Of a stretch of DNA of 8,150 nucleotides, positions 832 to 8,150 are shown piece after piece. The stretch is from Escherichia coli. GTDB lineage: Bacteria > Pseudomonadota > Gammaproteobacteria > Enterobacterales > Enterobacteriaceae. Below the pieces are notes generated by a model. That model had not been told where the DNA came from and did not search any database. It saw nothing but the letters and a program-made list of their open reading frames with translations. Position numbers and translations under genes: made by a program. Where the stretch lies: the NCBI RefSeq assembly GCF_048403405.1, contig NZ_CP183134.1; one strand, written 5' to 3'. The first letter of the stretch is position 1. Every line of letters begins with the position of its first letter.

Positions 832-1086
832 ATGAGCAGAACGCTCGAACAGAAGATTGCTGATGCTGAGGCGAGATTACAGCGCCTGAAGGCGAAGAGC
901 CGGAGCCTGGACACAGCGCAGAAGGTCATTGTGGGTGCAGCATTGCTGGCAAAGGTCAGAAAGCCGGAGGAAGTGCAGTTGCGAGCCTGGTTACTCCAGT
1001 TCCTGAAGGCAGAGGTGACACGGCAGGCTGATGTGACGCGAATACTGCCGCTGATTAACGAGCTGGAGGCGCTGCCAGAGCAGTGA
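832..1086 (+). CDS. mobC: MobC-like relaxosome accessory protein (84 aa)
   Basis: Complete ORF with ATG at 832 and GGAG Shine-Dalgarno at 821-824. Divergent from mobA across the putative oriT. The segment QKVIVGAALLAKVRKPEEVQLRAWLLQFL resembles RSF1010 MobC (RKVLVGAMILAKV...) from memory. Confidence 0.65.
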   Translation: MSRTLEQKIADAEARLQRLKAKSRSLDTAQKVIVGAALLAKVRKPEEVQLRAWLLQFLKAEVTRQADVTRILPLINELEALPEQ

Positions 1087-2561: not shown

Positions 2562-4727
2562 TCACATTCCCTGTGACCAACCGCGATCAGGTCTCCTCTC
2601 GGTGGCGTGTGTTCGTGCATCTTCCTCGCGCCGCCATTCGTCCCAGGTACGATTGAAACCCAGCGAGCGGAACAGATGATCCGGCTGTTTTTCTGGTGTG
2701 TTGACGACAGCAAAAAGCGGTGCCTCACGGGTTTTCAGATGAAACTCCATAAGTTCCGGTGCAGGTGATATGTGGCTGTCTGCATCATGATTTACGGCAA
2801 CACCATACCCTGCATACCGTAACCCCTTATCGGTCAGTGCACTGATAACCAGCTGGCTGTTATCGGCTGAGGGAACGGCAAACGCGGGATACAGCGTACC
2901 ATTAAGCCGGACAACACCGCCCAGAGAGTCATCCACGCCCATGACCAGCAAAAGCTGAAGCTGGCGGGTTTCCCGGTCGACAGAACTCATGACCGGCATC
3001 AGCGTCGGTGGCAGACGTCCCTGCGTAAAATCCACCTTCCTTGCTGCCAGTGATGGCATGGCTGGCTGGCGGTCTTCTCCAAGACAGAAAGACTCCGGCC
3101 ATGTCTTCGGCTGGCGGAGATTGCGGGTATGTTGCGGCCATGTCTGGCAAACCTGCGTCAGAAGTTGCTCAAAGGTCGCAGAGGAATAAATACGTTGCAG
3201 TGGTGGATGTTGGCCGATTTCGCTTCGGTCACAGATATAACCACTCCTGTCACGTATTAAATCAACACTCTCAAAGATCCTGGTGCGGTATTTCTCCAGC
3301 TCGTTCCCCCAGAGCGTGTATTCTCCGTTCCGGTTGTGAAGCAGAAGGTAACAAGTCATTTCCCCGTTACCAGGCATGGGAGCCTCGCCATACCCCGTAA
3401 CGACTGCTCTCAGCACCCCTGAATCCATAACGGCATTGTCATTTTTCCTGAGCTGTTCCGCTCGTCGCTCCGCGCGACTACGTTCTGTATCCTCCAGCTC
3501 CTTCCGGCGTAATTCATCTTCACGTTTAAGCAACTGGGCTCTGAGAGCTGCAAGGCCGGATTCCCCCCACTGCTGCCACTGTTTTTCAAATGCCGTCTGA
3601 CTCGCGGGAATGTCCTGTTTCTCCACCTTCCGGTAATGCTGTCGCAATTTTTCCATTTGCTGGCTCAGAGACTGGATTTTTCCCTGCTCACTACGGTATT
3701 CCGGTGCAGCCCATTGCATCAGGGGAATACGGGAAAAACCGGACGAAAACGGCGATGATTTTTTCAGGCTGGCAGCATGGCTCATCGCTTCCTTTCGTTC
3801 GGTGTTCAGCTCTTCCCAGCGTCTGCGCGTCGCCTGCATATCTGCCATCATCGACATGGCGTTACTGGTGAGTTTCCATGCCGCGTTACTGTCCTTCGGC
3901 AACGCTTCGATGATGTCACGTAGTGTGTACGAAGTTGCGTTGTCAGGAAGCCCGATATTCAGAAGGTCAGCCACACGGCGGGCAGGCTCTGTCAGCCCGC
4001 TGTTCCTGAGTTCGGTGCGGGAAATCTGTATTTCCAGGTTAAGCCTGTTAATCAGACGATTCTGTTCGCCGCGTTCTGTTTCGATACCGCGTGTTTCCAT
4101 CGCACAGGCAGACTTTCCGAGGTGAATACCCGGCGTTTTCTCAAGCCCCTGTCGCTCGTATGAACGATGGTCTATCTCTTTCTGATAACCGGCGTTCGCC
4201 AGTGCCCTGTTTGCATGGTCAGCCCATGATGCACGCCACGTCTCGGCATGTGTCCGGTCGTTCCAGTCCCTGACCTTTCCGCCGAACCCCGCAGGTCCGA
4301 CAGCCCTCGTGGTCAGCATAATGTGCGCATGGGGATTTGTTTTATCCATGTGATGGAACGCCACATCAGCAATCATGCCCTGACTGACAAAGTTTTCTCT
4401 GACAAAGGCGAGAACGGTTTCCCGTGCGGCATCCTGCGGCAGTTCGTGGGGGATGGCGAGTTCAATTTCCCGCGCAAGTTGTGAGTTCTTCCGGCGTTCG
4501 GCCTTCTCAACGGCATTCCAGAGTTCGGCACGGTTCGTACACCAGGCAGGGGCTGTCGCGGGGGTCAGAATCACAGCCTCAGCCACACCGCTTTTGCGGG
4601 TGTAGTCGTGAGTCAGTCCGGTACGCTCATCAAGCATTAGTGAACCAGAACGATAGGCAGCAGAAGCAACGGCGCTGTAGCCGTTGCTTCTGGAGATGAT
4701 TTTCATACTGAGATGATAAATCGCCAT
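2562..4727 (-). CDS. mobA: MobA/MobL-family relaxase, MOBQ-like (721 aa from the MAIYHL start; the ORF track extends to an upstream ATG at 4814)
   Basis: N-terminal MAIYHLSMKIISRSNGYSAVASAAYRSG (Tyr at residue 25, as in RSF1010 MobA), histidine motif NPHAHIML, and WADHANRAL, IDHRSYERQG, GIHLGKS, METRGI all parallel RSF1010 MobA motifs. The upstream ATG at 4812-4814 overlaps the nic-like motif and has no Shine-Dalgarno. Confidence 0.85.
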   Translation of the reverse strand: MAIYHLSMKIISRSNGYSAVASAAYRSGSLMLDERTGLTHDYTRKSGVAEAVILTPATAPAWCTNRAELWNAVEKAERRKNSQLAREIELAIPHELPQDAARETVLAFVRENFVSQGMIADVAFHHMDKTNPHAHIMLTTRAVGPAGFGGKVRDWNDRTHAETWRASWADHANRALANAGYQKEIDHRSYERQGLEKTPGIHLGKSACAMETRGIETERGEQNRLINRLNLEIQISRTELRNSGLTEPARRVADLLNIGLPDNATSYTLRDIIEALPKDSNAAWKLTSNAMSMMADMQATRRRWEELNTERKEAMSHAASLKKSSPFSSGFSRIPLMQWAAPEYRSEQGKIQSLSQQMEKLRQHYRKVEKQDIPASQTAFEKQWQQWGESGLAALRAQLLKREDELRRKELEDTERSRAERRAEQLRKNDNAVMDSGVLRAVVTGYGEAPMPGNGEMTCYLLLHNRNGEYTLWGNELEKYRTRIFESVDLIRDRSGYICDRSEIGQHPPLQRIYSSATFEQLLTQVCQTWPQHTRNLRQPKTWPESFCLGEDRQPAMPSLAARKVDFTQGRLPPTLMPVMSSVDRETRQLQLLLVMGVDDSLGGVVRLNGTLYPAFAVPSADNSQLVISALTDKGLRYAGYGVAVNHDADSHISPAPELMEFHLKTREAPLFAVVNTPEKQPDHLFRSLGFNRTWDEWRREEDARTHATERRPDRGWSQGM

Positions 4728-4905
4728 TTCTGCCGTAATGCCTTTTTGCAGTTTTCTTTCAGCCCCGCAGGGCGCACACAATCGAAACGGAGTGGAGATT
4801 GTATAAGTGCGCATTTCGTGATTTGCCGTGCATTATGCCAGCTCAGTTTTTAAACTACCAGTGACGCGCTAAAATGCGATTTTTCATCGCGCATGGAGTT
4901 ACATC
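4728..4905. other. Putative oriT, copy 2 (nic-like motif at 4804-4812)
   Basis: Identical to 654-831. Confidence 0.5.
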
Positions 4906-5160
4906 ATGAGCAGAACGCTCGAACAGAAGATTGCTGATGCTGAGGCGAGATTACAGCGCCTGAAGGCGAAGAGCCGGAGCCTGGACACAGCGCAGAAGGT
5001 CATTGTGGGTGCAGCATTGCTGGCAAAGGTCAGAAAGCCGGAGGAAGTGCAGTTGCGAGCCTGGTTACTCCAGTTCCTGAAGGCAGAGGTGACACGGCAG
5101 GCTGATGTGACGCGAATACTGCCGCTGATTAACGAGCTGGAGGCGCTGCCAGAGCAGTGA
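4906..5160 (+). CDS. mobC: MobC-like relaxosome accessory protein, copy 2
   Basis: Identical to 832-1086. Confidence 0.65.
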   Translation: MSRTLEQKIADAEARLQRLKAKSRSLDTAQKVIVGAALLAKVRKPEEVQLRAWLLQFLKAEVTRQADVTRILPLINELEALPEQ

Positions 5161-5408: not shown

Positions 5409-5505
5409 GGCTCGCCGTTAAGTTTTTAAGATCTTATTTTTAGATCTTTTTTTTTAAAACCTTTTTAGGTCTTGTAACCACATGATTTTAAAGGTGTTCT
5501 GGCGA
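5409..5505. other. AT-rich origin region with two GATC sites, copy 2
   Basis: Identical to 1335-1431. Confidence 0.5.
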
Positions 5506-5593
5506 GATAGGTGGAGCTTTTGGGGGTGATAGGTGGAGCTTTTGGGGGTGATAGGTGGAGCTTTTGGGGGTGATAAGTGGAGCTTTTGGGGGT
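5506..5593 (+). repeat. Iterons, 4 x 22 bp, copy 2
   Basis: Identical to 1432-1519. Confidence 0.85.
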
Positions 5594-6635: not shown

Positions 6636-8150
6636 TCACATTCCCTGTGACCAACCGCGATCAGGTCTCCTCTCGGTGGCGTGTGTTCGTGCATCTTCCT
6701 CGCGCCGCCATTCGTCCCAGGTACGATTGAAACCCAGCGAGCGGAACAGATGATCCGGCTGTTTTTCTGGTGTGTTGACGACAGCAAAAAGCGGTGCCTC
6801 ACGGGTTTTCAGATGAAACTCCATAAGTTCCGGTGCAGGTGATATGTGGCTGTCTGCATCATGATTTACGGCAACACCATACCCTGCATACCGTAACCCC
6901 TTATCGGTCAGTGCACTGATAACCAGCTGGCTGTTATCGGCTGAGGGAACGGCAAACGCGGGATACAGCGTACCATTAAGCCGGACAACACCGCCCAGAG
7001 AGTCATCCACGCCCATGACCAGCAAAAGCTGAAGCTGGCGGGTTTCCCGGTCGACAGAACTCATGACCGGCATCAGCGTCGGTGGCAGACGTCCCTGCGT
7101 AAAATCCACCTTCCTTGCTGCCAGTGATGGCATGGCTGGCTGGCGGTCTTCTCCAAGACAGAAAGACTCCGGCCATGTCTTCGGCTGGCGGAGATTGCGG
7201 GTATGTTGCGGCCATGTCTGGCAAACCTGCGTCAGAAGTTGCTCAAAGGTCGCAGAGGAATAAATACGTTGCAGTGGTGGATGTTGGCCGATTTCGCTTC
7301 GGTCACAGATATAACCACTCCTGTCACGTATTAAATCAACACTCTCAAAGATCCTGGTGCGGTATTTCTCCAGCTCGTTCCCCCAGAGCGTGTATTCTCC
7401 GTTCCGGTTGTGAAGCAGAAGGTAACAAGTCATTTCCCCGTTACCAGGCATGGGAGCCTCGCCATACCCCGTAACGACTGCTCTCAGCACCCCTGAATCC
7501 ATAACGGCATTGTCATTTTTCCTGAGCTGTTCCGCTCGTCGCTCCGCGCGACTACGTTCTGTATCCTCCAGCTCCTTCCGGCGTAATTCATCTTCACGTT
7601 TAAGCAACTGGGCTCTGAGAGCTGCAAGGCCGGATTCCCCCCACTGCTGCCACTGTTTTTCAAATGCCGTCTGACTCGCGGGAATGTCCTGTTTCTCCAC
7701 CTTCCGGTAATGCTGTCGCAATTTTTCCATTTGCTGGCTCAGAGACTGGATTTTTCCCTGCTCACTACGGTATTCCGGTGCAGCCCATTGCATCAGGGGA
7801 ATACGGGAAAAACCGGACGAAAACGGCGATGATTTTTTCAGGCTGGCAGCATGGCTCATCGCTTCCTTTCGTTCGGTGTTCAGCTCTTCCCAGCGTCTGC
7901 GCGTCGCCTGCATATCTGCCATCATCGACATGGCGTTACTGGTGAGTTTCCATGCCGCGTTACTGTCCTTCGGCAACGCTTCGATGATGTCGCGTAGTGT
8001 GTACGAAGTTGCGTTGTCAGGAAGCCCGATATTCAGAAGGTCGAGCCACACGGCGGGCAGGCTCTGTCGGCCCCGCTGTTCCTGAGTTCGGTGCGGGAAA
8101 TCTGTATTTCCAGGTTAGGCCTGTTAATCAGACGATTCTGTTCGCCGCGT
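6636..8150 (-). CDS. mobA: MobA relaxase, copy 2; 5' end runs off the window and carries apparent frameshifts near 8043 and 8071 relative to copy 1
   Basis: Identical to copy 1 up to about 7991. The ORF track ends at a GTG at 8051 because two 1-bp insertions shift the frame. I suspect these are consensus errors at a contig end rather than a true pseudogene. Confidence 0.6.

Follow-up and report, generated by a model that had tools for sequence, protein, structure and literature searches.

The C-terminal part of MobA, the relaxase of a small mobilizable plasmid of Escherichia coli and Salmonella, is by sequence homology not a primase but a copy of the non-catalytic module that Sog has at its C-terminus, and this module most likely, on comparative evidence, lets the relaxase use the secretion machine of an IncI-type helper. 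The window, i.e. the whole stretch of DNA analysed (8,150 nucleotides of the E. coli contig NZ_CP183134.1), is a head-to-tail dimer of a cryptic plasmid of these two hosts with a unit period of 4074 bp, and its two unit copies are identical except for a single mismatch at 3918 and an error-ridden window end. Database plasmids of 4074 bp in which rep, mobC, a 178-bp oriT and mobA are arranged alike match the plasmid at 99.9% identity, its mobA coding sequence is identical to that of CP082422.2 (annotated 'MobQ family relaxase'), and judged by its sequence the plasmid belongs to MOBQ4, a published family (rep, mobC, oriT, mobA). With 619 matching records in PLSDB, 4-kb plasmids of this type are among the commonest small plasmids in E. 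coli and Salmonella. The features on which the argument draws are the following, with residue numbers referring to MobA:

654-831 and again 4728-4905: mobC-mobA intergenic region, 178 bp, predicted oriT and site of MobA action (length and position match)
832-1086, plus strand: mobC, relaxase accessory protein of 84 aa (open reading frame list; annotated mobC in identical plasmids)
4906-5160: second copy of mobC
2562-4727, minus strand: mobA, MOBQ4-family relaxase, 721 aa plus stop (open reading frame list, translation)
4089-4676, minus strand: relaxase catalytic domain, residues 18-213 (Pfam MobA_MobL, E 3e-70)
3423-4007, minus strand: charged, probably helical middle region, residues 241-435, outside the Sog-like module (no profile match)
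2565-3410, minus strand: Sog-like C-terminal module, residues 440-721 (homolog search, tblastn, pairwise alignments, profile search, Foldseek)
3219-3410, minus strand: subdomain 1, truncated OB-like unit, residues 440-503
3024-3200, minus strand: subdomain 2, small alpha/beta unit, residues 510-568 (AlphaFold2 pLDDT 79-96 over most of it)
2694-3002, minus strand: subdomain 3, predicted eight-stranded up-and-down beta-barrel, residues 576-678 (confident prediction; best conserved part)
2595-2693, minus strand: two predicted C-terminal helices, residues 679-711 (AlphaFold2, model residues 255-260 and 267-282)
2565-2594, minus strand: short disordered tail, RPDRGWSQGM (low pLDDT)
6639-7484, minus strand: second, identical copy of the Sog-like module (dimer, period 4074)

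The minus-strand open reading frame spans 2562-4814, and database annotation places the start of MobA at 4727 (MAIYHL...), which corresponds to 653 in the first copy. From there mobC diverges across the 178-bp gap at 654-831, and the oriT of MOBQ4 plasmids that has been tested experimentally is of the same length and in the same position (PMC6856555). The relaxase itself is readily recognised: the NCBIfam MobQ equivalog matches residues 1-193 with 264 bits against a cut-off of 200, Pfam finds MobA_MobL alone and leaves the module uncovered, and the protein is a member of the MOBQ4 relaxases (MOBQ41, MOBQ42), for which Y25 and the E and H motifs have been named as catalytic (PMC6856555). The middle region is 39-51% identical to its counterparts in other MOBQ4 MobAs and is essentially missing in one short MobA, P0086. 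As the preliminary description had it, 2562-3377 on the minus strand codes for the C-terminal part of MobA (residues 451-721 and the stop codon), and the peptides quoted there are all present in the translation, TCYLLLHNRNGEYTLWGNE at residue 458, LVMGVDDSLGGVVRLNGTLYPAFAVP and the charged middle. The boundary that it drew near residue 450 needs a small correction, the conserved module beginning about 10 residues earlier, near residue 440 (window 3410).

Residues 441-702 of MobA pair with residues 949-1235 of SogL, a protein of 1255 aa in IncI plasmids, at 51% identity over 258 aligned residues. [quoted passage not shown] With tblastn it was found in about 2000 conjugative plasmids, mostly MPF_I, where it occurs as sogL, 'DNA primase' or LPD7 (E ~1e-66), and a profile search of 1.84 billion representative proteins gave matches down to 1e-151. 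The primase part of SogL is contained in residues 1-411 (DUF5710 match at 8-59, Toprim match at 265-365, EGYATA at 268) and SogS starts at residue 412, which puts the module inside SogS and outside the primase domain; MobA has its relaxase where SogL has the primase, an acidic disordered region and LPD7. Despite this varied N-terminal architecture, the module match ends 0-33 residues before the C-terminus in all 45 long homologs, 43 of which close on the motif [RQSNA]-P-[GAVSQ] followed by 0-2 residues. The window's MobA, in which the module reaches the stop codon, departs from the usual ending (...SPGR or ...RPG), with R-P found 8 residues before its end. The region had been described as having no recognisable function, which still holds in so far as no profile or structure gives it an identity, but it has a clear relative in the extreme C-terminus of SogL and SogS (46-51% identity, about 260 aa). 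The similarity of MOBQ4 MobA to SogL was already stated in one sentence in 2019 (Garcillan-Barcia et al., PMC6856555); the matching part of SogL, the fold and the link by homology to R64 as the best helper are absent there and added here, and neither the domain mapping and fold nor the cassette pattern set out below was found in the literature.

Among four MobAs compared, relaxase domains are 71-85% identical whereas the modules are merely 28-42% identical. The module of MobA P0086 (from an E. coli contig of 4971 bp, according to cluster lookup) matches the Sog protein from an IncK2/Z plasmid at 78% identity and the module of the window at only 28-30%, and by these sequence comparisons a second MobA lineage carries, independently, the module of a second Sog lineage. 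The primase domains of the two Sog proteins, of IncK2/Z and IncI plasmids, share 93% identity and their modules 31%; for TraJ, L, M, N, O, P and Q, transfer proteins of the two Sog lineages, the identity is 34-57%. Across three plasmid lineages, therefore, the module as judged from sequence identity has diverged to roughly the same extent as the type IVB transfer genes, although such parallel divergence would equally be expected if the module had some other partner specific to the lineage.

To the reading that the module is a helper-matched recruitment or translocation module we give an even chance on this comparative evidence, which also favours the 'coupling' domain, one of the two roles put forward in the preliminary description. 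The N-terminal relaxase would nick oriT and remain covalently bound to the transferred strand, the substrate-recruitment machinery of the helper would recognise the MobA module as it does Sog, chiefly through the eight-stranded beta-barrel and the helices and tail that follow it, and the relaxase-DNA complex would then be accepted and exported by a Sog-carrying helper. The module would thereby act as a helper-matched address tag, with MobA lineages bearing the modules of different Sog lineages. We infer that the secretion system recognises the module, and likewise which helper protein would bind it. A bolder form of this reading, which we hold rather more tentatively, is that the beta-barrel and tail may serve type IVB (MPF_I) conjugation systems as a portable address tag specific to the lineage, repeatedly exchanged as a cassette between the exported Sog of the helper and the relaxases of parasitic small plasmids, and that small plasmids may gain access by mimicking Sog and not the helper's relaxase. 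The cognate IncI relaxase, NikB, was tried as a relative of the module and rejected (hhalign probability 0.1%, no similarity); MobA therefore resembles Sog and not the relaxase of the helper.

Published mobilisation data can be set beside this reading. The most efficient helper of MOBQ4 plasmids is R64drd11 (MPF_I), pCTX-M3 (MPF_I) is also efficient, and MOBQ4 plasmids are found co-resident with MPF_I plasmids (PMC6856555). If the module links the relaxase to the helper machine, this would explain why IncI plasmids are the best helpers. MPF_T plasmids without Sog (RP4, R751, R6K) mobilise MOBQ4 plasmids too, R6Kdrd1 being called inefficient (PMC6856555), and the module therefore cannot be the sole route to the secretion system. 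Cis-acting relaxase behaviour has been reported for members of the family (PMC6856555). As to Sog, an abundant protein of IncI-type (MPF_I, type IVB) conjugative plasmids, SogL is moved to the recipient in hundreds of copies without a need for plasmid DNA (PMC8406263) and both Sog proteins enter the recipient (PMC6112013), in each case as whole proteins and not as the isolated module. IncI1 transfer is lost when transposons insert into the SogS-coding part (score 1.00), and 26% of SogL was scored as non-essential, these being whole-gene fractions that leave the part of SogL unspecified (PMC4288162). The same transposon data could contain polar effects on downstream tra genes. A mapping of the Sog export signal was not found in the accessible literature, which did not cover Narahara et al. 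1997, reportedly a Sog deletion study.

The AlphaFold2 model of the module, a structure prediction of the kind that the preliminary description had called for, has a four-part architecture with a confident beta-barrel; in AFDB50 the best 50 Foldseek matches are solely MobQ and Sog/'TraC' primase C-termini, and structural relatives of the barrel with a known secretion-related function were not found in the fold search. The first unit is a five-stranded OB barrel in the SogL copy; in MobA it is truncated and poorly modelled, lacking about 28 residues (strand beta4 and the next loop) that are present in Sog homologs, with a net charge of -2 and 34% identity to SogL. From the model it is probably the decayed remnant of an ssDNA-binding domain, OB-fold ssDNA-binding proteins (SSB, PriB, RPA, baculovirus LEF-3) being among the systems closest to it. 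Subdomain 2 has a long helix at model residues 88-101 with short strands and is 30% identical to SogL. The beta-barrel, at 76% amino acid identity to SogL as against 30-34% in the other subdomains, is on sequence the shared core of the MobA and Sog modules, and the LGF..W..W residues of the helical segment are kept across homologs. Handling of ssDNA, in which the module would bind, protect or help to thread the transferred strand in a DNA-chaperone role as has been speculated for Sog, is unlikely in view of this architecture: the OB unit of MobA is both short and modelled with low confidence, the conserved core is a beta-barrel unlike any nucleic-acid-binding fold, and the net charges of the subdomains in the window's MobA are near zero or negative (-2 to +2). 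A generic binder, moreover, should not differ by about 70% between plasmid lineages that share a host.

The other role that had been suggested for the region, priming, fares worse. The module would be a cryptic primase, or would recruit co-transferred SogL or host DnaG for complementary-strand synthesis in the recipient, and it is true that the module is homologous only to the C-terminal ends of proteins that carry a DNA primase annotation and that the MobA and Sog modules may bind each other homotypically. A precedent is provided by the MobA of RSF1010/R1162, in which a relaxase and the RepB' primase are fused and which resembles the present protein in having a MOBQ relaxase, a large extension at the C-terminus and MobC as accessory protein. 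The C-terminal domains of the two are nevertheless without likeness in sequence, profile or fold (no PDB chain of any kind at E<=10, hence none of RepB' if the searched copy contains such chains), and no sequence or fold similarity of the module to the RepB' catalytic domain or to any solved primase was found. Neither Toprim (by Pfam), EGYATA or an EGYATA-like motif, nor a RepB'-like signature is present in MobA, no primase was found with the module in PDB sequence, profile or fold searches, and the homology, at SogL 949-1235, is far from DUF5710 and Toprim and entirely outside the primase domain. The IncK2/Z plasmid, one case, further argues for separate histories of primase domain and module. 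We consider a priming role improbable, and the original remark that the region does not look like RepB' stands, no curated profile or solved structure identifying it. That description was to be overturned if a known primase, or another domain already characterised, were matched with confidence; such a match was obtained in name only, the matched part of SogL lying outside its primase.

Equally well borne out is the earlier statement that no motif could be placed. Pfam gave no family on the C-terminal 293 aa, nor on the module in 27 of 27 alignment members, and also left the module uncovered in full MobA, SogS and the SogL N-terminus; NCBIfam and PHROGs gave no family on the C-terminal 293 aa; and searches of PDB sequences, run both from the one sequence and from a profile of 27 sequences (E<=10), returned chance matches or none. 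The module thus has no Pfam or NCBIfam family of its own. A chromodomain and Kelch-like repeats, seen among the PDB matches, were rejected as being at chance level (E>0.06). Thousands of database entries name the module 'DNA primase', 'conjugal transfer protein' or 'LPD7 domain-containing protein', and these labels do not fit it.

An action after transfer, in anti-defence, in establishment or in relation to exclusion, as has been proposed for polyvalent-protein domains, we regard as having about the same slim chance as priming. It would agree with the joining of the module to varied N-terminal domains and with the place of SogL in the polyvalent-protein literature, since SogL carries LPD7, a 'large polyvalent protein-associated' domain (Pfam), and the survey of polyvalent proteins mentions SogL in its introduction as a primase that passes to the recipient in conjugation (PMC5512222). 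Such an effector, however, would predict neither the constant terminal position nor a divergence that tracks the transfer apparatus, it gains nothing from Pfam, NCBIfam and PHROGs, and a divergence that follows plasmid lineage inside a single host species points to a partner encoded on the plasmid. That the module is a dispensable, now functionless relic of an old recombination with IncI is very improbable: the OB unit is visibly decayed, but module dN/dS is 0.22-0.25 against two relatives 95-97% identical (few substitutions, hence noisy), which points to a functional domain under purifying selection, and as low as 0.06 for the barrel and helices (residues 575-712), barrel identity to SogL at third codon positions is 48%, far below that of the amino acids, the module is retained intact in more than 400 small mobilizable plasmids, and the second MobA lineage has, independently, a Sog module of a different kind.

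The role favoured here, helper-matched recruitment, has parallels in the translocation signals of F/R1 TraI (TSA/TSB) and R388 TrwC, in the two signals of R1162 MobA and in type IVB effector signals, where a non-catalytic part is recognised by a secretion system, and the position at the C-terminus agrees with what generally holds for type IV signals, but the likeness is one of analogy only, and the candidate described here differs in being a folded barrel common to the helper's exported Sog and not to NikB. If the address-tag reading is true, the module would be the first substrate-recognition domain, and a folded one, to be defined in a conjugative type IVB system, a compact and well-folded handle of about 140 residues for studies of substrate choice, and the helper range of a mobilizable plasmid could be predicted from sequence. 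For their movement the 4-kb MOBQ4 plasmids rely on IncI-type resistance plasmids. Within the window, the stretch equivalent to 2562-3377 is repeated identically at 6636-7451, and an in-frame ATG upstream of the annotated mobA start, at 4814, would give a MobA of 750 aa.

The mobA open reading frame occupies 2562-4814 on the minus strand, and translation from the annotated start, 4727, yields a MobA of 721 aa in which 2562-3377 corresponds to residues 451-721 plus the stop codon, as the preliminary description had placed it, with all of its quoted peptides found there. An in-frame ATG at 4814 would add 29 residues, encoded at 4728-4814 (750 aa in all), and the longer gene would run into the oriT region; databases use the ATG at 4727. 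Pfam recognised MobA_MobL alone (residues 18-213) and NCBIfam the MobQ model alone (residues 1-193). The C-terminal 293 residues matched no family in Pfam, NCBIfam or PHROG, and searching PDB sequences with the single sequence and with a 27-sequence profile (E<=10) gave no match, which bears out the statement that no motif could be placed there; the accompanying view that the region is not a RepB'-like primase also held, no such primase appearing in the searches of these four databases.

At 8150 bases, the window comprises two head-to-tail copies of a 4074-bp circular plasmid and 2 further bases. On self-comparison at a shift of 4074 bases, 3993 of 4076 positions match, and all but one of the mismatches lie in the last ~110 bases (about 8040-8150) as small insertions or deletions of the kind expected where a read or an assembly stops; the dimer form seems to be an artefact of long-read sequencing or of assembling a circular molecule, not a biological state. 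Many 4074-bp E. coli and Salmonella plasmids in PLSDB, where 619 records match, share 99.9% identity with the unit along its whole length, and CP082422.2 labels the three genes replication initiation protein, mobQ and mobC. The features of the unit are as follows.

654-831: 178-bp gap between mobC and mobA
832-1086: mobC
1427-1514 and 5501-5588: iterons, four tandem 22-bp repeats (GGGGTGATAGGTGGAGCTTTTG), ~100 bp upstream of rep and followed by an A-rich stretch
1619-2320: rep, Rep3-type
2562-4727, minus strand: mobA

Four such repeats upstream of rep are typical of an iteron origin, and this layout, together with the 178-bp gap, assigns the plasmid to the MOBQ4 family of Garcillan-Barcia et al. 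2019 (PMC6856555). Near-identical MobA fragments also appear in database entries for Gardnerella vaginalis, Bacteroides ovatus, Lactobacillus crispatus, Bifidobacterium longum and a Myxococcus species, for which contamination or mis-binning of a very common enterobacterial plasmid is the likeliest cause.

Homologs of the C-terminal 293 residues fell into two groups, the first being near-identical MobA fragments and the second proteins labelled 'DNA primase' or 'LPD7 domain-containing protein' (42-46% identity over ~90% of the query), one of which is encoded directly downstream of genes for DotD, T4SS_TraI, T2SSE and IcmT domains. By tblastn against PLSDB, this module was found in about 2000 conjugative plasmids, with feature labels including 'sogL: SogL DNA primase'; in pS292 the gene order is traJ, nuc, sogL, traL, and the sogL product has 1255 aa. 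MobA 441-702 aligns locally with SogL 949-1235 at 51% identity. The primase parts of SogL, all inside its first 411 residues, are the following.

SogL 8-59: DUF5710
SogL 265-365: Toprim
SogL 268: EGYATA motif

SogS, an 844-aa internal translation product, begins at SogL 412, and its only Pfam domain is LPD7 (SogL about 775-862). Judged by this alignment, the MobA tail has its homolog in the non-catalytic far C-terminal end that SogL and SogS have in common, not in the primase. Between the module and NikB, the helper's own relaxase, no similarity was seen. A weak match (E 3e-4, well short of the cut-off) links the LPD7 region of SogL (756-820; L003, LC567097.1, 3163-6930) with the final 64 positions of the TraI/MobA(P) relaxase model in NCBIfam; Sog may share a second module with relaxases.

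An AlphaFold2 model from the 27-sequence alignment (subtract 428 from MobA numbers to obtain model numbers) had a mean pLDDT of 80.7; between model residues 84 and 282 most positions exceed 90, with a dip to 58 at 131-140. It divides the module into five parts.

MobA 440-503: OB-like unit, poorly modelled, without about 28 residues found in every Sog homolog; 34% identity to SogL
MobA 510-568: small alpha/beta unit, predicted as one long helix and short strands; 30% identity to SogL
MobA 576-678: beta-barrel, predicted as eight-stranded and up-and-down, pLDDT mostly 92-97; 76% amino acid and 72% nucleotide identity to SogL
MobA 679-711: two helices, confidently predicted; 50% identity to SogL
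MobA 712-721: tail of ten residues, predicted disordered; outside the SogL alignment

Pfam and structure prediction had been proposed as checks of this region; the former yielded no family and the latter a fold whose neighbours, among the top 50 in Foldseek against AFDB50, were exclusively MobQ C-termini and Sog/'TraC' primases, matching at the Sog C-termini. MobA and SogL agree at 48% of third codon positions within the barrel and at about 30% outside it; the barrel is the core common to both proteins. The OB-like unit has no Pfam family; P0152, a 756-aa protein with a MobA/VirD2-like nuclease domain (Pfam Relaxase PF03432), carries five tandem copies of it, showing that the unit also serves as a repeatable module in other relaxases.

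Searching 1.84 billion representative proteins with a profile gave 133 matches. The 45 long ones (349-1649 aa) include three MobA relaxases and have varied N-termini, most beginning with DUF5710-like sequence as in Sog; in all 45 the module match ends 0-33 residues from the C-terminus, and 43 finish with [RQSNA]-P-[GAVSQ] and 0-2 further residues. Four MobAs are 71-85% identical in their relaxase domains and just 28-42% in their modules. In the short MobA P0086 (E. coli contig, 4971 bp) the module is 78% identical to that of the IncK2/Z plasmid Sog (CP055049) and only about 30% to that of the window, and the IncK2/Z and IncI Sog proteins are themselves 93% identical in the primase domain and 31% in the module. 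Since TraJ, L, M, N, O, P and Q of these plasmids are 34-57% identical, a divergence about equal to that of the module, the module appears to follow the transfer-apparatus lineage while the primase domain moves independently. From these comparisons, the module behaves as a cassette, with at least two MobA lineages carrying modules of two different Sog lineages. IncK2/Z Sog (L006, NZ_CP055049.1, 2280-5939) is a mosaic relative to LC567097.1, 88-98% identical over residues 1-400 and then falling abruptly to 20-50%, and its primase domain seems to have been recently swapped in. The MobA of CP101803.1 (L004, p802A1-7K), a 7.1-kb colicin plasmid with bacteriocin immunity and lysis genes, is 85% identical to the window MobA in the relaxase domain and only 42% in the module, a third module variant among MOBQ4 relaxases. 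P0078 (L007, 838-3312; Logan SRR23994534), an 824-aa MOBQ4-like MobA, has an extra window-type OB-like unit before a complete second-type (IncK2/Z-like) module; its carrier is a 7.4-kb Rep3 plasmid also encoding a glycoside hydrolase family 28 protein and an MFS transporter.

The MOBQ4 plasmid, its MobA and the similarity of the module to SogL are already in the literature, and no further treatment of that similarity was found in MOBQ4 publications, represented largely by titles and abstracts. In the papers located we likewise found no account of the homology lying at the non-primase end of Sog, of the OB, alpha/beta and barrel architecture, of the absence of the module from database families or of the parallel cassette pattern of helper Sog and MobA relaxases; together these provide a specific hypothesis that is cheap to test.

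We give roughly even odds to the module being the part of Sog recognised by the I-type secretion system, chiefly through barrel, helices and tail, the copy in MobA allowing the relaxase-DNA complex to be accepted by the same helper; we infer every step from homology to recognition by the secretion system. TrbC and TrbA are presumably candidate binding partners, judging from their Dot/Icm counterparts. This reading best fits the invariably terminal position, the parallel divergence of module and transfer genes, the cassette pattern and the following published facts. The most efficient MOBQ4 helper is R64drd11 (MPF_I), pCTX-M3, likewise MPF_I, is also efficient, and MOBQ4 plasmids are repeatedly found alongside MPF_I plasmids (PMC6856555). 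Hundreds of SogL molecules pass into recipients, and their export does not depend on plasmid DNA (PMC8406263); both Sog proteins reach the recipient (PMC6112013). When an IncI1 plasmid was screened with transposons, the part coding for SogS received a score of 1.00 'required for transfer' and 26% of SogL was scored non-essential, as whole-gene fractions to which polar effects may contribute (PMC4288162). RP4, R751 and R6K, which have no Sog, also move MOBQ4 plasmids (R6Kdrd1 being called inefficient; PMC6856555), so entry cannot depend on the module alone.

Binding or coating of single-stranded DNA, in line with the OB fold and with old speculation on Sog, is an unlikely alternative, given that the OB unit of the window MobA is shortened and the least conserved part, that subdomain charges are near neutral and that lineage-specific divergence is unexpected for a generic DNA binder. 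The preliminary description had suggested a priming or coupling domain; coupling is plausible, and a priming role, whether catalytic or by recruiting SogL through homotypic contacts, is improbable, its catalytic form being contradicted by homology outside the SogL primase domain and by a module that shows no primase signature. We think equally little of a recipient-side effector, which none of the results directly oppose but which does not predict an invariably terminal position. That the module is a dead relic is scarcely credible in view of purifying selection and independent retention in two MobA lineages. Against two relatives 95-97% identical here, dN/dS was 0.22-0.25 for MobA 436-721 and 0.06-0.24 for residues 575-712 (barrel and C-terminal helices), noisy values from few substitutions; the MobA C-terminal region is real, functional coding sequence.
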